40,673 nucleotides of DNA, from the sequence record PQ179042; one strand, given 5' to 3'. Below, piece after piece: positions 1-40,673 of the stretch (position 1 is its first letter; every line of letters starts with the position of its first letter). The DNA comes from Escherichia phage KM02. A model generated the notes under the pieces. The model did no database searches and was not told the DNA's origin. It saw nothing but the letters and a program-made list of their open reading frames with translations. The translations under genes and the position numbers were made by a program.

Positions 1-1
1 T

Positions 2-177
2 TCTCACAGTTCAAGAACCTCAAGTCTCCCCATAGGCCCTCTTTCAGTCAGACCAAAGGCCCTACCCCAGTCTATCATAAGGTTGGACCGATGGTCAAGA
101 CTTCAGGTCAACGATAGGTAGAGGCTATGGCTTAGGGAAGGACGATAGGTTGGGACTATGGGTCTTCTTTGAGTCTC
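2..177. repeat. Left direct terminal repeat (176 bp), identical to 40498-40673
   Basis: Exact match of window start (from nt 2) to window end; nt 1 (t) does not match 40497 (a). T7 has a comparable 160-bp terminal redundancy. Confidence 0.95.
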
Positions 178-197
178 TATCTGTATAGTGTTATAGT
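169..197 (+). promoter_or_regulatory. Candidate host sigma70 early promoter (TTGAGT-17-TATAGT)
   Basis: -35-like ttgagt at 169-174, 17-nt spacer, -10 tatagt at 192-197; straddles the terminal repeat boundary. Confidence 0.4.
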
Positions 198-214
198 ATA
201 ACATTACGTCCTAC

Positions 215-298
215 ACCTACAGTCTCACTAACCTACAGTCTCACTAACCTACAGTCTCAACCATAAGACACCAACACCTACAGTCATAGACCTACAGT
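215..298. repeat. Array of five ACCTACAGT-core short repeats (two full 16-bp units ACCTACAGTCTCACTA) beginning 38 bp inside the left terminal repeat boundary
   Basis: Copies at 215, 231, 247, 276 and 290, read directly. Confidence 0.8.
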
Positions 299-334
299 TA
301 ATAGACACAAGGCTATAGACTTAAGGTCTAAGAC

Positions 335-550
335 ATGTTAGTCAAAGACTATATCCTCTTACACCATGGGGCCGACGATAGCTTAATCAATATTATTTCG
401 AATTACCTATTGACTATAGGTCCAGACTATGGCTTAATAGCTTCCGTCAACACGACACGGCAACAACCGGATAGTGAAGACGCCTGGTCATCCCGGTTAA
501 GTAGACAGCCTGATAAGTCATACGAACAACAGGCAGATGACAGAAAGTAG
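335..550 (+). CDS. Hypothetical early protein (weakly supported)
   Basis: 71-aa ORF in the track; only a weak aagg Shine-Dalgarno; lies upstream of the best host promoter candidate. Confidence 0.25.
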   Translation: MLVKDYILLHHGADDSLINIISNYLLTIGPDYGLIASVNTTRQQPDSEDAWSSRLSRQPDKSYEQQADDRK

Positions 551-580
551 TTGACAAGATGTACCGACTTAAAGTAGTAT
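551..580 (+). promoter_or_regulatory. Candidate host sigma70 early promoter (TTGACA-18-TAGTAT)
   Basis: Perfect -35 TTGACA at 551-556 and -10-like TAGTAT at 575-580, upstream of the early gene cluster, as for the T7 A promoters. Confidence 0.5.
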
Positions 581-708
581 GTACCACATCAACACGAAAC
601 AACGGTGACGACCAACACTAAAACGGTCTACCTGAAGTCCTCTGACTGAAGGGAATGTTCTTTAACAATCTGGATAAACTCTTAATGTGCGCCGATAGCG
701 ACTAACTA

Positions 709-740
709 CAGGGCCTTTGAGTCTACATCTGAAGGCCCTG
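709..740 (+). promoter_or_regulatory. Leader hairpin (9-bp stem cagggcctt/aaggccctg), candidate RNase III processing site
   Basis: Perfect inverted repeat 709-717 / 732-740, followed by a conserved block gactgatagtcactaact-aaagga that recurs at 1058-1080. Confidence 0.45.
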
Positions 741-763
741 ACTGATAGTCACTAACTTAAAGG

Positions 764-1018
764 ATGGACACTATGAAACACTTAAGCACAATCACTAATC
801 ACAATGAAGTATTCGTGAATACTAAAGGTTATGCGTGGATTCAACTTAAAGAGATGACAGGAGCGCGTCACCGTGTGGTAGTGCGCAAGGTCTCAAGCAA
901 GCCGTTCAGCAACTACAGCGTAGATACTGTGCGTATAGACAACGAGACCTACCTGATAGACTCGCAGATAACCGTGAGTCCTACAGCGGGCGTCTCAGCT
1001 CCTTATTTCGCTAACTGA
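764..1018 (+). CDS. Hypothetical early protein (gene 0.3 position; not Ocr-like in composition)
   Basis: ORF in track; SD aagga at 759-763 favours the internal ATG at 773 as the true start; not acidic like T7 Ocr. Confidence 0.5.
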   Translation: MDTMKHLSTITNHNEVFVNTKGYAWIQLKEMTGARHRVVVRKVSSKPFSNYSVDTVRIDNETYLIDSQITVSPTAGVSAPYFAN

Positions 1019-1032
1019 GAGTGATTAACTAC

Positions 1033-1057
1033 AGGTCGTTAGACTTATAGCGGCCTG
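1033..1057 (+). promoter_or_regulatory. Second leader hairpin (7-bp stem with one G-U pair), candidate RNase III site
   Basis: caggtcg 1033-1039 pairs with cggcctg 1051-1057; followed by the same conserved block plus SD as at 741-775. Confidence 0.4.
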
Positions 1058-1088
1058 ACTGATAGTCACTAACTAAAGGATAGACAAT

Positions 1089-1277
1089 ATGGCAGACCGT
1101 AAGCTGACCAAAGCAGAAGTGATAGCCGAATGTCGTGAAACTTTCCGCGAGTTCCCTGAGACTTTCAGAGGTGACGACATAGCAAAACAGCAGTATTGGA
1201 ATGATTACACAGACAGTCTCTGTAAGTCTGGCATGATTTACAACCACCAGTATAACACCTGGTCAAACCCATTCTAA
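1089..1277 (+). CDS. Hypothetical early protein
   Basis: 62-aa ORF with SD aagga 8 nt upstream inside the repeated leader block. Confidence 0.5.
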   Translation: MADRKLTKAEVIAECRETFREFPETFRGDDIAKQQYWNDYTDSLCKSGMIYNHQYNTWSNPF

Positions 1278-1293
1278 CGTAAGGAATATAACC

Positions 1294-1806
1294 ATGAAAC
1301 TGATAGGCAAAGGCGCGTTCACTAAGTGCTACCTGAAGGATTGCGGAAAGCGTGTACTTCTGGTCTCTTCAGACCCAATCAAGGAGTGCATGGCGTGGGG
1401 CTGGTTCCCTGAGTCGCCGCTGTTCCCTGAAGTCAAGATGATTGAGGTAGGCACGTATGAGATGGACTACATGCCACCAACACGAGGACTCAAGGCGCAT
1501 TTAGGTGACGACCAGTGGCAACTCTATCAGGTGCTGCGAGATTGCTTCTCACGGTCTCCGGTATTCTCTCAACCTGCTGACCTGTATCACAAGTGGTACG
1601 AGATATTCCAAGCTGCACACGACAGGTCTGAGACCGAGACTGTGCGGGAAGGTCTGATGGATGTACTGATGGCGCTGGACGCTTGCGCTAACTTTGGGTC
1701 TGACATTCAGTTTGAGATAAGCCCACGCAATGTACGGGCCGTTCACGGCAAGTTGATACTGGTGGACTGCTTCTTCCTTGTGTCCAAGCTGCAAGAGGTG
1801 AGGTAA
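1294..1806 (+). CDS. 0.7: Short Ser/Thr protein kinase, T7 gp0.7-like kinase domain only
   Basis: N-terminal KLIGKGAFTKCY resembles the glycine-rich loop KMLGNGHFSAAY recalled from T7 gp0.7; SD aagga present; 170 aa versus 359 aa in T7. Confidence 0.55.
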   Translation: MKLIGKGAFTKCYLKDCGKRVLLVSSDPIKECMAWGWFPESPLFPEVKMIEVGTYEMDYMPPTRGLKAHLGDDQWQLYQVLRDCFSRSPVFSQPADLYHKWYEIFQAAHDRSETETVREGLMDVLMALDACANFGSDIQFEISPRNVRAVHGKLILVDCFFLVSKLQEVR

Positions 1807-1811
1807 TCAAG

Positions 1812-1961
1812 ATGGTAACTTATGGTCTCTGCCAGCACCACGTCACCAACGCCCGGCTTATGGTCAAGACCGGGCAGTTAAACCACGATGCGACTATGCG
1901 CTATCTGAAAGCGGTCTACGAGGGCCGCAAGCGTATACACGACAGTTTACACGCTGAGTGA
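1812..1961 (+). CDS. Small hypothetical protein (49 aa)
   Basis: ATG at 1812 preceded by gaggtgagg; not in the ORF track because it is under 60 aa. Confidence 0.25.
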   Translation: MVTYGLCQHHVTNARLMVKTGQLNHDATMRYLKAVYEGRKRIHDSLHAE

Positions 1962-2028
1962 CAGACGATAGGTCATCTAACTGATAGGTGGCCTCAAAGA
2001 TTATCACTTAAATTGATAGGGGTTAACT

Positions 2029-2193
2029 ATGAAACTTACAGGCATCACACTTTACGTAACCATCATTCTGTCTTGGCTGACTGCGGTCATAGCTGATGGG
2101 AATGCACTACGCCTTGGTTGGCTGGCAGTTGATATCATATTCTCTCCGGTAGGGGTTGTGCGTGGCATCCTGATGTGGATTGGACTGGCGTGA
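2029..2193 (+). CDS. Small hydrophobic (membrane) protein, 54 aa
   Basis: ORF MKLTGITLYVTIILSWLTAVIADGNALRLGWLAVDIIFSPVGVVRGILMWIGLA read from sequence; weak SD. Confidence 0.3.
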   Translation: MKLTGITLYVTIILSWLTAVIADGNALRLGWLAVDIIFSPVGVVRGILMWIGLA

Positions 2194-2199
2194 TAAACT

Positions 2200-2400
2200 A
2201 TGAGTCTTGCACTATTGATAGCCATAGGCTATGGACTTATCGCCTACGTGCTGGTGAGAGACATCAACAAAGCGCGTAAAGTCTATAAATTCAACTATGT
2301 ACGTATGGTCCGCTGGACTGTACGTCAACCTAACGGACGATTCATGTGCAACCTCGCGAACGTCTGGGATATAGCAACTCTTGGGAGCAAACTACAATGA
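2200..2400 (+). CDS. Hypothetical protein (weak)
   Basis: 66-aa ORF in track; no clear SD; overlaps the next ORF. Confidence 0.2.
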   Translation: MSLALLIAIGYGLIAYVLVRDINKARKVYKFNYVRMVRWTVRQPNGRFMCNLANVWDIATLGSKLQ

Positions 2401-2723
2401 ACAAGTCATACGGGATTAATCTGGTACACTCTATGGACGCAGACATGCAAATGTTAAGCCTACTGGCTACCGGGTATCGTCACGGAACGTCAAGTCACAC
2501 CTCACGTCAACAGCAGGAGCGGGACCGTGTACTACAGGCACGACTCCGGGCAGAGGGCCATAAGTCCGAGCTGATGTGTCTGGCGTATGGTGGACGACCA
2601 ATCACCGACGATGGTAAACTTCTGGTCTCAGGCTGGAAGGCGATAGACCAACGGTCAACCATCAAGCACACGACTCACGGTGACTTCTGTCATCTTCATG
2701 CTAACCCTCTGATATGCAAGTAA
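2346..2723 (+). CDS. Hypothetical early protein (probable start at ATG 2397)
   Basis: 125-aa ORF; ggag lies 9 nt before the internal ATG at 2397. Confidence 0.35.
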   Translation: MQPRERLGYSNSWEQTTMNKSYGINLVHSMDADMQMLSLLATGYRHGTSSHTSRQQQERDRVLQARLRAEGHKSELMCLAYGGRPITDDGKLLVSGWKAIDQRSTIKHTTHGDFCHLHANPLICK

Positions 2724-2728
2724 TTATG

Positions 2729-2751
2729 ACTTAACTATCACTATAGGACTC
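2729..2751 (+). promoter_or_regulatory. Phage-RNAP promoter directly upstream of the RNAP gene
   Basis: cttaactatcactatagg at 2730-2747 matches the consensus of the ten other phage promoters in this genome. Confidence 0.6.
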
Positions 2752-2820
2752 AAGGTCTAAGACTCCAAGTGAAAGACCAAAGAGACTTTAAGTGAAAGAC
2801 TAATAACAAGGACTTTAAGT

Positions 2821-5502
2821 ATGAGCGTCATCTCTATTGAAAAACACGACTTCTCTGATGTGTCGAACGCCATTGAGCCGTTTAACCTGCTGGCTGACCA
2901 CTACGGGCAAGACCTTGCAGTCAAACAGCTTCAGCTTGAGCACGAGGCATACACTGAAGGCGAGCGACGTTTCATCAAGAACCTTGAGCGCCAGACTGAG
3001 CGCGGGGAACTGGCAGACAATCAGGTCGCCAAGCCTTTGATGCAGACTCTGGTCCCTAATATTGCGCAAGCCGTCAGGGAGTGGCATGAAGGGCCAGACG
3101 GGAAGCTGTCAACCTCTCGTCCTAGCGTAGCGTTCACCGTGTTGAGCACTGAAGAGAAGGCCGTCAAGGACCGCTCTATGCGCATCTCCTGTGAGTCTGC
3201 TGCGGTTATCATACTGAAGGTCATACTCTCCAAGCTGGTCAAGCCTGAAGGGATACCGATTACACCGATGGCCTCAGCGATAGGTCGCACACTTGAGGAC
3301 GAAATCCGCTTCGGTCGCATCCGTGACAAGGAGAAAGAGCACTTCAAGAAGGCGATAGCTGATAACCTGAATAAGCGGGCCGGGGCGTCCTACAAGAAAG
3401 CCTACATGCAAGCGGTCGAGGCATCCATGCTGGAGCAAGGCCAACTGGAAGATGCGTGGGGGACTTGGAGTCCGACCGAGGCTGTCCACGTTGGAATCAA
3501 GATGCTGGAGATTGTCATCCAGTCCACACAACTGGTCGAGCTTAAGCGTTACGGTGCTGGCAATGCAGCGGCTGACGTTGAGATGGTCCACCTGTCAGAC
3601 TTCTGGGTCAAGAAGATGGCACAACGAGGATTCAGCCTTGCGGGTATAGCTCCAGTCTACCAGCCTTGCGTCGTTCCACCTAAGCCGTGGACTGGTGTCG
3701 TAGGTGGTGGGTACTGGGCCAAAGGACGCAGACCATTACCACTGATTCGCTTAGGGTCTAAGTCTGCGGTAGCACGCTACGAAGACGTGTATATGCCTGA
3801 AGTCTATGACGCTGTGAACATCATTCAGAATACACCTTGGAAAGTGAACAAGAAGGTTCTGGAAGTGGTGAACATGGTCGAGAAGCTGAACAACACGCCT
3901 ATTGATGACATACCTCAGATGGAACCGCTGAAGCCTGAGGACTATGCGGGTGAGACTGAAGATGAACTCAAGGCATGGAAGAAGGCTGCTGCTGGTATCT
4001 ACCGCCGAGAGAAGGCACGGCAGTCACGCAGATTGTCACTGAGCTTTATCGTTAACCAAGCGAACAAGTTCTCTCAGTTCAAGGTCATATGGTTTCCGTA
4101 CAACATGGACTGGCGCGGTCGCGTCTACGCTGTGCCGATGTTCAACCCTCAAGGCAACGACATGCAGAAAGGTCTCCTTACTCTGGCAGTCGGCAAGCCT
4201 ATTGGCGCTGATGGTTTCAAGTGGCTGAAGGTCCATGGTGCAAACTGTGCGGGTGTCGATAAAGTCACCTTCGAGGAGCGCATCAAGTGGGTGGAAGACA
4301 ACCACGACAACATCATGGCTGCTGCTAAAGCACCGATGGACAGCATTGAGTGGTGGGGCAAGTTAGACTCTCCGTTCTGTTTCCTCGCGTTCTGCTTCGA
4401 GTATGCTGGCGTAATGCACCACGGCCTGTCTTACTCCTGCTCGCTGCCGATAGCGTTCGATGGGTCCTGCTCTGGTATTCAGCACTTCAGTGCGATGCTT
4501 CGTGACCACATCGGTGGACATGCAGTAAACCTGACGCCATCCGGTAAGGTACAAGACATCTACCGCATTGTGTCTGACCGCATTGAGGAGGAGCTTAAAG
4601 TCCTGCTGATTAACGGTACTGACAACGAGATGGGCACTCACGAGGATAAGAAAACTGGTGAGATTACCGAACGTATCAAGCTGGGGACACGAGAGCTGGC
4701 CCGTCAGTGGCTGACATACGGTATGTCACGCAAGGTCACTAAGCGTTCAGTCATGACTCTGGCCTACGGGTCGAAAGAGTATGGCTTCGCAGACCAAGTT
4801 TACGAGGACATCGTGATGCCAGCGATTGACTCAGGGTCTGGCGCTATGTTCACCGAGCCAAGCCAAGCGGCTCGCTTCATGGCTAATATGATTTGGGAAG
4901 CTGTGAGTGTGACCGTAGTTGCTGCGGTAGACGCTATGAAGTGGCTTCAGGGTGCCGCCAAGCTGCTGGCTGCTGAAGTGAAGGACAAGAAGACTGGAGA
5001 AATCCTGAAGCCTTGCCTTCCGGTACACTGGGTAACACCTGATGGTTTCCCGGTCTGGCAGGAATATCGCAAGAAGGATACCACTCGTCTGAACTTGATG
5101 TTCTTAGGGTCATTCAACCTTCAGCCTACCGTCAACAGGGGTACGAAGAAAGAGCTGGACAAGCACAAGCAGGAGTCAGGCATTAGCCCGAACTTCGTCC
5201 ACTCACAAGATGGTAGCCACCTACGCAAGACTGTAGTCCATACTCACCGCAAGTATGGCGTGATGTCGTTCGCAGTGATTCACGATAGCTTCGGGACCAT
5301 CCCGGCTGACGCTGAGTATCTGTTCCGTGGGGTCCGTGAGACTATGGTCGAGACCTACCTAGACAACGATGTGCTGCTTGACTTCTACGAGCAGTTTGAA
5401 TACCAGCTTCACGAGAGCCAGCGCGATAAGTTGCCAGAGCTTCCGAAGAAAGGTAAACTGAATATCGAAGACATCTTGTCTTCAGACTTTGCATTCGCTT
5501 AA
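2821..5502 (+). CDS. 1: DNA-directed RNA polymerase, single-subunit T7-type
   Basis: 893 aa; extensive identity to recalled T7 RNAP motifs (FSDV...PFN.LADHYG, WFPYNMDWRGRVYAV, HGANCAGVDK, ending DFAFA). Confidence 0.98.
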   Translation: MSVISIEKHDFSDVSNAIEPFNLLADHYGQDLAVKQLQLEHEAYTEGERRFIKNLERQTERGELADNQVAKPLMQTLVPNIAQAVREWHEGPDGKLSTSRPSVAFTVLSTEEKAVKDRSMRISCESAAVIILKVILSKLVKPEGIPITPMASAIGRTLEDEIRFGRIRDKEKEHFKKAIADNLNKRAGASYKKAYMQAVEASMLEQGQLEDAWGTWSPTEAVHVGIKMLEIVIQSTQLVELKRYGAGNAAADVEMVHLSDFWVKKMAQRGFSLAGIAPVYQPCVVPPKPWTGVVGGGYWAKGRRPLPLIRLGSKSAVARYEDVYMPEVYDAVNIIQNTPWKVNKKVLEVVNMVEKLNNTPIDDIPQMEPLKPEDYAGETEDELKAWKKAAAGIYRREKARQSRRLSLSFIVNQANKFSQFKVIWFPYNMDWRGRVYAVPMFNPQGNDMQKGLLTLAVGKPIGADGFKWLKVHGANCAGVDKVTFEERIKWVEDNHDNIMAAAKAPMDSIEWWGKLDSPFCFLAFCFEYAGVMHHGLSYSCSLPIAFDGSCSGIQHFSAMLRDHIGGHAVNLTPSGKVQDIYRIVSDRIEEELKVLLINGTDNEMGTHEDKKTGEITERIKLGTRELARQWLTYGMSRKVTKRSVMTLAYGSKEYGFADQVYEDIVMPAIDSGSGAMFTEPSQAARFMANMIWEAVSVTVVAAVDAMKWLQGAAKLLAAEVKDKKTGEILKPCLPVHWVTPDGFPVWQEYRKKDTTRLNLMFLGSFNLQPTVNRGTKKELDKHKQESGISPNFVHSQDGSHLRKTVVHTHRKYGVMSFAVIHDSFGTIPADAEYLFRGVRETMVETYLDNDVLLDFYEQFEYQLHESQRDKLPELPKKGKLNIEDILSSDFAFA

Positions 5503-5520
5503 CAGGAGAGAGAGAGAGCT

Positions 5521-5736
5521 ATGAAATTTGCACACAAGCATACTGGCATTAATGGTGGGACTCAAATCGTGACCGTAACAGAACACAACGGCAAGGGTCT
5601 GGTGAAGACCACGGTCATCCCTACCGAGATGTCCAAGCAGCTTAACATCCCGTTCAAGACTCTTGTAGATCTGGTCGAGTCCAGCCACGAGAAGTACCTG
5701 AAGGACGCAGTGTCCAAACTGGAGCAGACCAAATGA
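5521..5736 (+). CDS. Hypothetical protein
   Basis: 71-aa ORF with SD aggag; follows a (GA)6 run at 5506-5518. Confidence 0.45.
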   Translation: MKFAHKHTGINGGTQIVTVTEHNGKGLVKTTVIPTEMSKQLNIPFKTLVDLVESSHEKYLKDAVSKLEQTK

Positions 5737-5811
5737 CAGACCTACAGTTGCTGGCCTTGTGGCTGGGAGCACTCGCAGTATTCACTTTAATCCAACGCAG
5801 AAGAGGTTAAC

Positions 5812-5834
5812 CCTAAACTATCACTATAGGATTA
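5812..5834 (+). promoter_or_regulatory. Phage-RNAP promoter (T7 phi1.1 analogue)
   Basis: ctaaactatcactatagg at 5813-5830. Confidence 0.75.
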
Positions 5835-5874
5835 GACTCAAGGTCATGACTCAAAGTCGTGGCCTTCATGATTA
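5833..5874 (+). promoter_or_regulatory. Conserved RNase III-site-like motif (copy A; T7 R1.1 position)
   Basis: tagactcaaggtcat-N11-gtggccttcatgatta; near-identical copies at 13420-13461 and 37474-37512. Confidence 0.5.
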
Positions 5875-5907
5875 ACCCTAAATAAACACTACTGGAGATT
5901 TAACCGT

Positions 5908-6087
5908 ATGTATCAGAATACTATCAACTTCGAGCGCATCCGTGAACGTCAGCAGACTGAAGGCTACATACCGAAGGGCCGCAAGCTGAACAAGACTAAA
6001 CGTGGCGGTGGTGTCAAAGGCGCTTTCCGTAATGCTGAAGGTAAAGACTCTATGATCAACCAAGAGAAGTACTTCGTAGGAGCGTAA
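5908..6087 (+). CDS. 1.1: gp1.1-like small basic protein
   Basis: 59-aa ORF with KGRKLNKTKR motif matching T7 gp1.1 as recalled; SD ggag. Confidence 0.55.
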   Translation: MYQNTINFERIRERQQTEGYIPKGRKLNKTKRGGGVKGAFRNAEGKDSMINQEKYFVGA

Positions 6088-6090
6088 GCC

Positions 6091-6342
6091 ATGAGTAAAC
6101 GTTGGTTATTCGACGCATCACCGAGCCAGTGGTCAGCGTTAGGCCGGACTCACCGCGAGATGAGTGAGGCAGGACTTGATGTCAAAATGGATGGCTCGCC
6201 GTGCTCCGGAAAAACTCTGGTAAGAGTAATTGAAGCAGACGGTGTGGGGCTTCTGGTCTCCAGAGAATTTACCGAAGATGAAATCTTTAGCTGTGAGCAA
6301 TGGTGCTTACGACAATTGAACGCTTATAGGAGCTGGAAATAA
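6091..6342 (+). CDS. 1.2: gp1.2-like protein (host dGTPase inhibitor family by position)
   Basis: 83 aa, right size and position, ends in WK like T7 gp1.2; SD aggag. Confidence 0.45.
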   Translation: MSKRWLFDASPSQWSALGRTHREMSEAGLDVKMDGSPCSGKTLVRVIEADGVGLLVSREFTEDEIFSCEQWCLRQLNAYRSWK

Positions 6343-7397
6343 TGACTACGACTATTAAAACTAACCCGCACCGCGCTGTAGATTACTCTGAGTCTGGCGT
6401 TAAGAAGGCTTTGGAAGCTGCTGGGTCACTGGAAGCTGAAGTGAAGTATGACGGTGTGCGGTTGAACCTTCCGGTCTTCCCTACTGGTGAGACTCAATGG
6501 TTGAGCCGTGAGTCCAAAGAGCTTCCGGCCCTAAGCTGGCTGGGCACATCCGGTGACGACATCGGTTCTGCCAAGGCTAGCGACTGGCGATGGTTCCTTA
6601 AACAGGCTGGATACGAAGGTACTGGCCTGATGATTGACGGCGAGGTGATGGTAAAGGGTGTAGACTTCAACACATCCTCAGGACTTATTCGCACGAAGTG
6701 GCTGAAGCCTGATAACCTAAAGTTCAATGACGTAAAGTTTGACGAGATGCCTCGTAAGTCTACAGGCGCTAAGTCTAAACTTCCGTTCCTACTGGCAGCC
6801 GAGCATATCCAAGTGGTTGTATACGGGATTATTGACCTTAACGTCATCCTAGACCCAAAAGCTGAAGGGCCTATCCACAGCGTAACGAGACTGAAGGCCG
6901 AAGCTGTCGTCCCTCTCCTCCAGAAATACTCCCCGGAAATCGACTGGGTGCTATCTGAGAGTCATACAGTGTTTAGCTTAGACGAGCTTACTGACTTGTA
7001 TGAGAAGAAGAGAGAAGAGGGCCATGAGGGTCTGGTAGTTAAAGACCCACTGGGTAAATGGAAGCGTGGCAAGAAGTCAGGCATGTGGAAGATGAAGCCA
7101 AGCGAAGAGGCGGATGGTCATGTTGTGCGCCCTGTGTGGGGTACGGATGGGTTAGCCAACGAAGGCATGGTCATCGGATTTGACGTTATGCTTGAGAACG
7201 GGATGGAGGTCTCCGCAACTAACATTAGTCGCGCCCTTATGTCCGAGTTCACGGAGAATGTTAAGTCAGACCCTGACTACTACAAGGGGTGGGCTTGCCA
7301 AATTACCTACATGGAGAAGACACCAGATGGAAGCCTCCGACACCCGTCATTCGACCAATGGCGGGGGACTGAGGACAATCCAACGGAGAAGATGTAA
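6342..7397 (+). CDS. 1.3: ATP-dependent DNA ligase
   Basis: 351 aa with the ligase adenylation motif KYDGVR; T7 gene 1.3 position. Confidence 0.9.
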   Translation: MTTTIKTNPHRAVDYSESGVKKALEAAGSLEAEVKYDGVRLNLPVFPTGETQWLSRESKELPALSWLGTSGDDIGSAKASDWRWFLKQAGYEGTGLMIDGEVMVKGVDFNTSSGLIRTKWLKPDNLKFNDVKFDEMPRKSTGAKSKLPFLLAAEHIQVVVYGIIDLNVILDPKAEGPIHSVTRLKAEAVVPLLQKYSPEIDWVLSESHTVFSLDELTDLYEKKREEGHEGLVVKDPLGKWKRGKKSGMWKMKPSEEADGHVVRPVWGTDGLANEGMVIGFDVMLENGMEVSATNISRALMSEFTENVKSDPDYYKGWACQITYMEKTPDGSLRHPSFDQWRGTEDNPTEKM

Positions 7398-7579
7398 TGA
7401 TAATTTTTGACCAAGGCATTTGGAAGGTATGGCAACATCCACACTTACAGGTATTCCACATCCTGAAATGGTCTGAGGGAGATGACCCATCCTCTTATGG
7501 GAGCAAGTGGGATTACTTCATACAGAAAGAGTGTTGGAGTATACTCGAGGTAAAGGCATATCTTCAAGCTAACATGTAG
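7397..7579 (+). CDS. Hypothetical protein lying between the ligase stop and a displaced ligase 3' remnant
   Basis: 60-aa ORF; its ATG overlaps the ligase stop (taATGa). Confidence 0.4.
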   Translation: MIIFDQGIWKVWQHPHLQVFHILKWSEGDDPSSYGSKWDYFIQKECWSILEVKAYLQANM

Positions 7580-7582
7580 TAA

Positions 7583-7657
7583 CAATGGCCAGTACTTCGT
7601 CACCCTAGCTTCAAGTGCTGGCGCGGGACGGAAGATAACCCGACCATTAAGAGCTAA
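7583..7657 (+). pseudogene. Displaced, divergent remnant of a ligase C-terminus
   Basis: Encodes QWPVLRHPSFKCWRGTEDNPTIKS, versus the true ligase end SLRHPSFDQWRGTEDNPTEKM; codons differ mainly at synonymous positions. Confidence 0.6.
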
Positions 7658-7666
7658 CTAAATGTC

Positions 7667-7700
7667 AACCCAGTGGTCTTATGACTGCTGGGTTTCTTTG
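7667..7700 (+). terminator. Rho-independent terminator (T7 TE analogue)
   Basis: Stem aacccag (7667-7673) / ctgggtt (7688-7694) followed by tctttg. Confidence 0.55.
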
Positions 7701-7739
7701 CTTATGCTAGCAAGCTATCGTTTGGGCCACCAGCTAGAC

Positions 7740-7762
7740 CCTAAGCTATCACTATAGGACAA
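7740..7762 (+). promoter_or_regulatory. Phage-RNAP promoter (phi1.5-like)
   Basis: ctaagctatcactatagg at 7741-7758; one mismatch to consensus. Confidence 0.65.
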
Positions 7763-7788
7763 CCCTAACCGACCAAAGGAGAAACCTT

Positions 7789-8043
7789 ATGTCTAAAAAC
7801 TTAATGTTCAACCGATTTACTAGAAGCTTCCACCTGTCGCATAGCCCATTCAGCTTCCATAAAGCTAATCAACCATTACCCCGCTTTGGTAAGACAGTGG
7901 CTCTGTCTCCTACAGTTCATGCGCTAGTCACCCGCAAGTCTATGCTGAATGCTATGGATAAAGAACAAATTGATGTACCTGTGGTCGTTACAAAATGGCC
8001 TCGCATTAAGCTGGCACTTCTGGTAATTAAGGAGGCGCTCTGA
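7789..8043 (+). CDS. Hypothetical protein
   Basis: 84-aa ORF with SD aaggag. Confidence 0.5.
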   Translation: MSKNLMFNRFTRSFHLSHSPFSFHKANQPLPRFGKTVALSPTVHALVTRKSMLNAMDKEQIDVPVVVTKWPRIKLALLVIKEAL

Positions 8044-11026: not shown

Positions 11027-11242
11027 ATGATTAAACTTATTGAATTTCTTGGTCGTCTGGTGGTGCGTGGTTATCGTCGTGCTGCGGTACTGGAACGAAA
11101 GGTAGCAGAGAAGACTGCTGACGGTGCTGCTGATGCTGCTGCTCTGGCTGACAAGCTGACCATAGCGTCACTGGAAGCTGGAATGAAGGCTCGTCAGGCT
11201 GATACCAAAGCTGACCAGTTGTCTCAGTTCTTCAAAGACTAA
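11027..11242 (+). CDS. Hypothetical protein
   Basis: 71-aa ORF with SD aaaggag; its stop sits inside the next promoter. Confidence 0.5.
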   Translation: MIKLIEFLGRLVVRGYRRAAVLERKVAEKTADGAADAAALADKLTIASLEAGMKARQADTKADQLSQFFKD

Positions 11243-11260
11243 ACTATCACCTTAGGGATG
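11238..11260 (+). promoter_or_regulatory. Phage-RNAP promoter, diverged at -4/-3 (CACCTTAGGG)
   Basis: ctaaactatcaccttaggg at 11239-11257. Confidence 0.5.
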
Positions 11261-11310
11261 GGACCATGAGTCCTGTCCCTTTGTTCGCATTTGTTACTAA
11301 GGAGTGACCG

Positions 11311-13216: not shown

Positions 13217-13417
13217 GTGCGATTGGAAGTCACCATACGGAGGACACCATTAGTGTTTAAGAAACTTAAAGCTCGCTACCATCGGTTCATGTACAAATGG
13301 TGGAGCGATGAAGCAACCTGCCTGTCGAACATTCTTGGAGAACAGCGGTTCGAGTCTAAGGCATGGAAGAAAGCTAACCGTAAGTTTATGTACCACTTCT
13401 TACGTACAGACTTATAG
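13217..13417 (+). CDS. Hypothetical protein (probable GTG start at 13253)
   Basis: ORF in track; SD acggagga lies 7 nt before the GTG at 13253. Confidence 0.35.
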   Translation: MRLEVTIRRTPLVFKKLKARYHRFMYKWWSDEATCLSNILGEQRFESKAWKKANRKFMYHFLRTDL

Positions 13418-13419
13418 GT

Positions 13420-13461
13420 ATAGACTCAAGGTCATTCACATCGAGTGGCCTTTATGATTAG
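13420..13461 (+). promoter_or_regulatory. Conserved RNase III-site-like motif (copy B; T7 R4.7 position)
   Basis: tagactcaaggtcat-N9-gtggcctttatgatta immediately upstream of gene 5. Confidence 0.5.
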
Positions 13462-13480
13462 ACTAAACGGAGGATTAACC

Positions 13481-27136: not shown

Positions 27137-27186
27137 AAGGGCCTATAGATTTACCTTAACTATCACTATAGGGACTATAGGCCCTT
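27137..27186 (+). repeat. Perfect 12-bp inverted repeat (aagggcctatag / ctataggccctt) bracketing the phi13 promoter
   Basis: Arms at 27137-27148 and 27175-27186 with a 26-nt spacer that contains the promoter core. Confidence 0.7.
27154..27176 (+). promoter_or_regulatory. Phage-RNAP promoter (phi13 analogue)
   Basis: cttaactatcactataggga at 27155-27174. Confidence 0.7.
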
Positions 27187-37473: not shown

Positions 37474-37512
37474 TTAGACTCAAGGTCATCTATTGGTGGC
37501 CTTCATGATTAG
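37474..37512 (+). promoter_or_regulatory. Conserved RNase III-site-like motif (copy C; T7 R18.5 position)
   Basis: tagactcaaggtcat-N6-gtggccttcatgatta between genes 18 and 18.5. Confidence 0.5.
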
Positions 37513-37562
37513 CACTAACGTAGGTGACTATACGTGAATTCTTTTAAAACAGGAGGGCAACT

Positions 37563-40420: not shown

Positions 40421-40459
40421 ACCTACGGTCCTTGACCTACAGTGGCTGTGGCCTACAGT
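40421..40459. repeat. Three (A/G)CCTAC(A/G)GT short repeats ending 38 bp before the right terminal repeat
   Basis: acctacggt 40421-40429, acctacagt 40435-40443, gcctacagt 40451-40459; same core as the left-end array. Confidence 0.75.
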
Positions 40460-40497
40460 AGTGACGATGAGTTTTGGACCAAAAGTTTGAGACCACA

Positions 40498-40673
40498 TCT
40501 CACAGTTCAAGAACCTCAAGTCTCCCCATAGGCCCTCTTTCAGTCAGACCAAAGGCCCTACCCCAGTCTATCATAAGGTTGGACCGATGGTCAAGACTTC
40601 AGGTCAACGATAGGTAGAGGCTATGGCTTAGGGAAGGACGATAGGTTGGGACTATGGGTCTTCTTTGAGTCTC
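40498..40673. repeat. Right direct terminal repeat (176 bp), identical to 2-177
   Basis: Exact sequence identity with the left end, read directly. Confidence 0.95.

Follow-up and report, generated by a model that had tools for sequence, protein, structure and literature searches.

Can the polymerase gene of a T7-like phage be transcribed by its own product? The question is raised by the genome of Escherichia phage KM02 (sequence record PQ179042), in which a sequence resembling a phage promoter lies directly before gene 1, the gene for the phage's single-subunit RNA polymerase (RNAP). We analysed this stretch of 40,673 nucleotides, called the window below, and compared it with related genomes; coordinates refer to its + strand unless stated otherwise. 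On sequence evidence, we hold with high confidence that positions 2729-2751 form a functional promoter for the phage's own T7-like RNAP. This element is probably a functional class-II-type promoter that gives host-independent, RNAP-dependent transcription of gene 1 in a positive feedback loop, and self-amplification of the RNAP during infection would very probably follow from the layout.

The gene 1 promoter and its conservation

The earlier note, made by inspecting the letters of the window, had placed a phage promoter about 75 nt before the start of gene 1, and this position is borne out. The element spans -17 to +6 (GACTTAACTATCACTATAGGACTC, 2729-2751), its predicted start site (+1) is G2746, and the gene 1 ATG follows at 2821, 75 nt downstream, in the same orientation and with no terminator between. 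Its core, TAACTATCACTATAGGAC (2732-2749), occurs ten times in the window with at most three mismatches, always on the + strand, against 0.02 copies expected from shuffled sequences. Predicted starts are 2746, 5829, 7757, 8722, 17903, 21121, 22108, 27171, 34637 and 39914. Scored with a position weight matrix built from the other nine sites, the 2746 site obtains 35.5 bits and ranks second of the ten; the best site outside the promoter family obtains 24 bits in the same scan. The genes found first after each promoter follow the T7 order: RNAP comes first, then small open reading frames (ORFs) leading to ligase, an 84-aa ORF, a gp2.5-like single-stranded DNA-binding protein and a phrog_1447 protein (function unknown), and later a head assembly protein, the major capsid protein, an internal virion protein and the tail fibre.

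Gene 1 itself (2821-5502) encodes a T7-type single-subunit RNAP of 893 aa. Pfam detects RNA_pol (PF00940, 1e-105) and RPOL_N (PF14700) in 2821-5499, so that the cognate RNAP is encoded by the same genome, and in tblastn the product is 98.7% identical to a Kayfunavirus RNAP and 62.5% identical to T7 RNAP. It is the sole long gene between the 2746 promoter and the next one, which has its +1 at 5829 and, downstream of it, a hairpin of RNase III type, TAGACTCAAGGTCATGACT...AGTCGTGGCCTTCATGATTA (5812-5876 for the pair). This second promoter and hairpin end the stretch served by the 2746 promoter alone, which therefore comprises only gene 1 and a 71-aa ORF (phrog_8082). Over positions 1-8000 of the + strand we found no intrinsic-terminator-like site except a hairpin with a T-run at 7667-7694, similar to an early terminator and located after the ligase gene (6342-7397). 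As no + strand site of this kind precedes 7667, neither host nor phage RNAP meets a stop signal on its way from the left end to gene 1. The leader of a promoter-initiated gene 1 mRNA (2746-2820) is 75 nt long with 63% A+T; folded from +1, it is no more stable than shuffled sequences (z = +0.83), and no conserved structure was found in it across six lineages.

A 1-kb probe around the site matched 215 phage records, nearly all Kayfunavirus, from the hosts Escherichia, Salmonella, Enterobacter and Citrobacter, with best identities of 96-97%; we accordingly classify the window as a Kayfunavirus genome (K1F-like Studiervirinae, T7 family). Promoter function was judged by comparison, using 80 loci around RNAP homologues from IMG/VR and, in addition, named genomes from GenBank; loci with an RNAP at least 78% identical were counted as Kayfunavirus-type. 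Conservation in relatives, which the earlier note had suggested checking, proved complete in this group: a cognate promoter with its +1 63-82 nt before the RNAP ATG is present in 26/26 Kayfunavirus-type loci, and the K1F site is identical to the 2746 promoter. None of the 60 loci of T7, T3, Berlin, K11 or VP4 type has a cognate promoter within 300 nt upstream of gene 1. In those loci the first downstream promoter comes just past gene 1, and upstream promoters lie about 1.3-4.4 kb or more before it, many of them phiOL-like (about 2.5-3 kb).

The promoter also varies together with the polymerase. Most lineages use aaACTATCACTATAGG; L018, L039 and EcpYZU01 use aaACCCTCACT(A/G)TAGG and L015 uses aaGGTACACTATAGG, and in each lineage the site before gene 1 carries the version of its own genome. 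In the specificity loop of the RNAP, the window has N748/N756 (ACTAT-type), L018 and L039 have D748/R756 (CCCT-type), as in a T3-like locus, and L015 (GGTA-type) has K748, as in K11-like phages; the EcpYZU01 RNAP is absent from this alignment. Promoter bases -11 to -8 agree with the loop residues at T7 positions 748, 756 and 758. Among 23 genomes of the same specificity, variable columns number 2/20 in the promoter and 0/16 from the Shine-Dalgarno sequence to the ATG, compared with 31/59 in the leader between them: promoter and start region are conserved islands in a variable intergenic region. A cognate promoter in the right orientation, an unstructured leader free of terminators, conservation throughout the Kayfunavirus-type loci and co-variation with RNAP specificity together mark the proposed promoter as bona fide, and because of them the phage RNAP should transcribe its own gene.

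In the course of events that we envisage, host RNAP arriving from the left end would first read through the site and produce the first gene 1 mRNA. The polymerase protein would then start at G2746, and gene 1 would gain a second mRNA whose ribosome-binding site is unchanged and whose 75-nt leader is open and A-rich; initiation at 2746 and the amplification itself are the steps that we infer. Later in infection the loop would likely be limited by lysozyme, by analogy with T7 class II promoters (GGAC start), which are the promoters most sensitive to T7 lysozyme.

That the 2746 site is instead a non-functional remnant or a chance match, an outcome the earlier note had allowed for, is hardly credible. 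Such a reading could appeal only to the lack of direct transcription data and to a published Ro45lw annotation without the site, and it has to accommodate a full-score match (35.5 bits) that is kept in all 26 loci and tracks three RNAP specificities. Furthermore, a true remnant in the same genome looks quite different: at about 13393-13420, in front of an RNase III-type hairpin, the window retains only ACAGACTTATAGGTATAGACTC where relatives have an intact ctaagctatcactgtaGGATAGACTC. The decay of an unneeded promoter in this very genome supports the 2746 site as one that has been kept and is functional. As far as the compared sequences go, a remnant or chance origin is already contradicted. With regard to Ro45lw, the feature table of the corresponding paper lists a first promoter only after the RNAP gene (5483-5505); locus L011, apparently Ro45lw (RNAP start 2498), has a promoter about 81 nt before the RNAP ATG, which appears to have been missed in the published table.

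Several points nevertheless weigh against self-transcription as the role of the promoter, or against its strength. The literature searched holds no transcript, run-off or 5'-end data for this phage or any Kayfunavirus. The GGAC start belongs to the early/middle group and not to the GGGA late group, so that promoter strength may be modest; four early or DNA-metabolism promoters, 2746 included, start with GGA(C/T), and the capsid promoter starts with GGGAGACC. All gene 1 promoters of the Ro45lw/Pisces/Dev2/LET1 subgroup have an A at -2 (TAAAGG), which sets them apart from the other promoters of the subgroup and could weaken them. Concerted evolution among promoters could contribute to the observed co-variation. 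Finally, because the T7 homologue of the module, described below, is part of a primary replication origin, selection could act on replication and not on RNAP dosage. A separate proposal, that the promoter speeds genome entry, was rejected on logic: the role is unlikely because RNAP is absent until the downstream gene 1 is inside the cell, and the 5829 promoter is nearer the entering DNA.

Leader repeats and the read-through hairpin

Gene 1 is preceded by a Shine-Dalgarno sequence, AAGGA (2808-2812), separated by the 8-nt spacer CTTTAAGT from the ATG at 2821-2823. The two pairs of direct repeats that had been noticed in the leader are indeed there: AAGTGAAAGAC occurs at 2767-2777 and 2790-2800, GACTTTAAGT at 2784-2793 and 2811-2820, and neither is found elsewhere in the window. 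They exceed chance, as dinucleotide shuffles of the leader gave an exact repeat of at least 11 nt in 12/5000 cases and two repeats covering 38 nt in 0/5000. Both pairs are pieces of a four- to fivefold reiteration of the motif GACYn(1-3)AAG (2747-2820), whose copies start at 2747 (GACTCAAGGT), 2761 (GACTCCAAGT), 2775, 2784 and 2811 (the last two within the GACTTTAAGT pair), the final copy forming the spacer from the Shine-Dalgarno sequence to the ATG. No other 80-nt stretch of the genome holds as many as these five copies; the runner-up has 2, and the maximum in shuffled genomes was 3, attained in 2/200. Four copies are kept in three other lineages, and in the T7-like locus L025 the densest cluster of the motif lies at phi1.1B. 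Tandem Repeats Finder reports nothing for 2650-2900, because the reiteration is too irregular.

Two further candidates in the leader were set aside. A mini-ORF, GTG-AAA-GAC-TAA (2793-2804), has no support, short ORFs being expected in A/T-rich sequence, and the leader matches only 6/9 bases of the T7 gene-10-type 'epsilon' translational enhancer. Genome-wide, the word CTTAAAG has 11 copies (for example at 756, 17951, 21186 and 23435) for 2.5 expected; about 4/11 directly precede a Shine-Dalgarno sequence, an arrangement also seen in the leader of T7 gene 10 (AACTTTAAGAAGGAG).

Read-through transcripts, and only these, can form an imperfect hairpin of about 21 pairs at 2735-2798. In this fold the promoter core CU-UCACU-AGG-CUC-GGUCU pairs with AGACC-GAG-CUU-AGUGA-AG, the promoter UCACU meeting the AGUGA of the second AAGTGAAAGAC copy. 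The element might thus act at the RNA level: the promoter would be the 5' arm of an R1-like RNase III or structural site, absent from self-initiated transcripts, and the GACYnAAG array a protein- or ribosome-binding signal that sets or brakes gene 1 translation. The hairpin is the minimum free energy structure and the centroid alike, and in the Ro45lw/Pisces/Dev2 subgroup the promoter core and the leader form a perfect 11-bp inverted repeat, TATCACTAAAG/CTTTAGTGATA, that takes in the -2 A (L011 2407-2417 / 2461-2471; L089 3266-3276 / 3320-3330). The motif cluster, the densest in the genome and kept in other lineages, would fit such a role as well. The hairpin is energetically weak, however (z = -1.25 to -0.8, no better than shuffles), it was not recovered in EcpYZU01 or L015, and it shows one informative co-variation event only. 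Rfam gives no family at gathering threshold in the whole window and only chance-level small nucleolar RNA matches in 2600-2950. A promoter-containing hairpin as an element is suggestive only, and we regard action at the RNA level as quite improbable.

The same possibility can be examined through the RNase III-type hairpins of the genome. These form a family, TAGACTCAAGGTCAT...GTGGCCTTYATGATTA, at 5833-5876, 13421-13465 and 37475-37520, which is similar to what T7 has between its promoters phi1.1A and phi1.1B (sites of R1.1 type for RNase III); in relatives the stems show changes that compensate each other, such as GGTCATGACT/AGTCGTGGCC versus GGTCGCTGAC/..AGTGGCC. The three members have upper stems of 12, 10 and 8 bp that close on GTGGCC and are followed by TTYATGATTA. 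Their 5' motif, GACTCAAGGTC, occurs in the gene 1 leader as GACTCAAGG at 2747 (one of seven copies, with about 0.16 expected for the window length), which would speak for an RNA-level function. The 3' motif GTGGCCTTYATGATTA is nevertheless absent from the leader, as is the upper stem of 8-12 bp: only GGUCU/AGACC and ACU/AGU are found, with a 3x3 internal loop. The 5829 hairpin has z = -2.39, compared with +0.83 for the leader from +1 and -1.25 with the promoter included. For the leader of self-initiated transcripts an RNase III site was therefore rejected: its fold is no better than shuffles, six lineages share no conserved structure, and the 3' motif is missing. A point in favour of an RNA-level role is that T7 reportedly has such a site, R1, immediately ahead of gene 1 (Dunn and Studier 1983); the T7 RefSeq table does not list R1. 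A decayed phi1.1B relic after the 5829 promoter (+1 at 5894) was likewise rejected, with only 5.2 bits; as TTAACCCTAA at this site is conserved whatever the promoter specificity, it is part of the 3' flank of the hairpin.

The T7 phi1.1B module and a possible replication origin

The closest T7 counterpart of the gene 1 leader is found downstream of T7 gene 1. Aligned end to end with T7 5923-6009, from the phi1.1B +1 to the gene 1.1 ATG, the leader is identical in 62/91 columns and scores 24; in 1000 dinucleotide shuffles the mean score was -3 (sd 4.5, maximum 10) and 0/1000 reached that of the leader. The 15-mer AGGACTTTAAGTATG at the gene 1 start matches T7 5995-6009, in the gene 1.1 start region, exactly. 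Promoter and leader are thus clearly homologous to the T7 phi1.1B-to-gene-1.1 module, which shares with the window a GGA-start promoter, reiterated CTTAAG/CTTTAAG motifs and the 15-mer. In T7 the module follows gene 1 and drives gene 1.1, whereas in the window it precedes gene 1 and would drive the polymerase gene itself; judged from this homology, a unit of phi1.1B-type promoter, leader and ribosome-binding site stands before and not behind gene 1, relative to T7. The 5829 promoter and its hairpin TAGACTCAAGGTCATGACT...AGTCGTGGCCTTCATGATTA correspond to T7 phi1.1A/R1.1, where phi1.1A is followed by the CAAGGTCATTCGCAAGAGTGGCCTTTATGATTGACC hairpin.

This homology raises another explanation. 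In T7, phi1.1A and phi1.1B are primary replication origins, and a promoter for T7 RNAP is essential to every T7 origin (PMC8373140). The module could therefore be kept mainly as a transcription-primed replication origin, like phi1.1A/phi1.1B with their A+T-rich region, with gene 1 transcription as a by-product of origin placement. Besides the alignment and the promoter, base composition would agree with such a role: the leader is A+T-rich (63%), and the 60-nt stretch at 2787 is among the most A+T-rich of the genome. So would GACCA at 2775-2779, which reads TGGTC on the - strand, is aligned with GACCC in T7 and fits the T7 primase site, given as 5'-(G/T)2GTC-3' (PMC12839067). However, this primase-type feature is not present in every lineage, being lost in the L018 lineage (GACCG) and in the Ro45lw lineage, and the 5829 promoter region is as A+T-rich and located where the T7 origin is. 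Moreover, an origin role would leave gene 1 transcription intact, and the two readings are non-exclusive. We view conservation mainly for replication as possible but rather unlikely. A combined scheme, in which the T7-type primary-origin module before gene 1 of Kayfunavirus would couple RNAP self-amplification with transcription-primed replication, the GACYnAAG array and the read-through hairpin acting as a brake on a natural autogene, remains speculative and we give it little credence.

Known counterparts and genomic setting

The earlier note had drawn a contrast with T7, where gene 1 would be transcribed only by host RNAP and the first phage promoter would lie downstream of it. This contrast was too sharp: upstream of T7 gene 1, the T7 RefSeq record lists the T7 promoter phiOL at nt 405 and also, at 3113, the E. 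coli promoter C, which is 58 nt away from the gene. What stands is that T7 has no proximal phage promoter before gene 1. Unlike the 2746 site, phiOL lies at the genome end, about 2.8 kb upstream of gene 1; promoter C is placed like the 2746 site but is a promoter for host RNAP.

A phage promoter before the polymerase gene is itself a known architecture. In the Pseudomonas phage LUZ100, a transcriptome map (ONT-cappable-seq) shows the phage promoter phi1 directly upstream of a T7-like RNAP gene, and ignition by host read-through followed by self-amplification was proposed (PMC10134795). LUZ100 is distant and temperate-like, and a MarR-like repressor has been put forward as the gate on its loop. 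In the window, a Kayfunavirus genome of strictly lytic type, no repressor gene lies nearby, and the promoter is predicted, not mapped. For the Vibrio phage phiA318, a predicted promoter, phi-A8, precedes the kinase and RNAP genes, and autoregulation was suggested (PMC4099482). In Ghunavirus, Dickeya phage BIM BV-99 (GenBank PP566124) has an annotated 'phage specific promoter 02' just upstream of its RNAP gene, and 7/9 Ghunavirus-type loci have a promoter 100-176 nt upstream of that gene that tracks the local variant (TGTGGC or TGTTGC). Promoter consensus and leaders differ from those of the window in both Ghunavirus and phiA318, and these cases are predictions only, as here. The Ghunavirus gene 1 leaders (L084 4055-4200; L085 4190-4323) have three repeats of CCTTAAAG type between promoter and RNAP start, along with a hairpin of very high stability (z = -6.5 and -2.8), and differ in this from the open Kayfunavirus leader.

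Engineered strains provide the same layout. T7 gene 1 placed behind a T7 promoter (Endy et al. 2000) led to auto-amplification, according to a later account (PMC3737178). Strains with a T7 autogene or an ectopic gene 1 are artificial and share the promoter-RNAP arrangement of the window, which is natural, conserved in the genus and would be ignited by host promoters from the left end. Dubendorff and Studier reportedly described the T7 autogene in 1991, with the RNAP gene immediately downstream of its cognate promoter. As to K1F parts, the full-length K1F RNAP and its cognate PK1F promoter are reported to work in vivo (PMC12218169), and the K1F recognition loop has been transferred to the T7 enzyme by Temme et al. 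Within Kayfunavirus, the Sparklingdew paper mentions a repeat of promoter type, located at the 3' end of the gene that comes before the RNAP gene.

Genus-wide conservation with co-variation, the phi1.1B/origin homology and the leader motif array were not found in the literature searched, with the original K1F genome paper and that of Chen and Schneider (2005) outside. The present case is of incremental significance, as earlier publications on other T7-like phages already contain both this architecture and the idea of feedback. Should the loop operate as proposed, K1F-like phages would represent a natural, genus-wide version of the 'T7 autogene' circuit otherwise built by engineers, a circuit that proved hard to predict in permuted T7 genomes. 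Comparison with T7 could then reveal how a lytic phage tunes polymerase dosage after the shut-off of host transcription. In addition, K1F RNAP serves together with its promoter as a source of orthogonal parts for expression, to which the native promoter-leader-ribosome-binding-site unit and its variants of three specificity classes would be ready-made additions.

The left region that surrounds the promoter has the layout of the T7 early region, by comparison with T7 RefSeq. Sigma-70-like sites are located at 169-197 and 551-580, and their number is not above that in shuffles. Immediately upstream of the promoter lies an early ORF of 108 aa counted from its ATG (2397-2723, phrog_7066, function unknown), whose stop codon TAA (2721-2723) ends 5 nt before promoter position -17. 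In the K1F RefSeq/GenBank record (L001 2208-2566), this phrog_7066 ORF has no annotated coding sequence and a 358-nt gap stands in its place.

The ends of the window (1-250 and 40424-40673) are non-identical over 50-250 nt, so the terminal repeat seems to be present no more than once in the record, in contrast to relatives, which are described with direct terminal repeats of 183-190 bp. Two further observations concern the promoter family. A weaker promoter-like site, ACTAAACTATCACCTTAGGGA (11233-11262, +1 at 11255, 24 bits), is separated by 56 nt from a downstream 59-aa ORF and by about 250 nt from the gene for primase-helicase. At 27157-27181, another GACTATAGG comes directly after the 27171 promoter (CACTATAGGGACTATAGGCCC), the start region being partly duplicated with an overlap.

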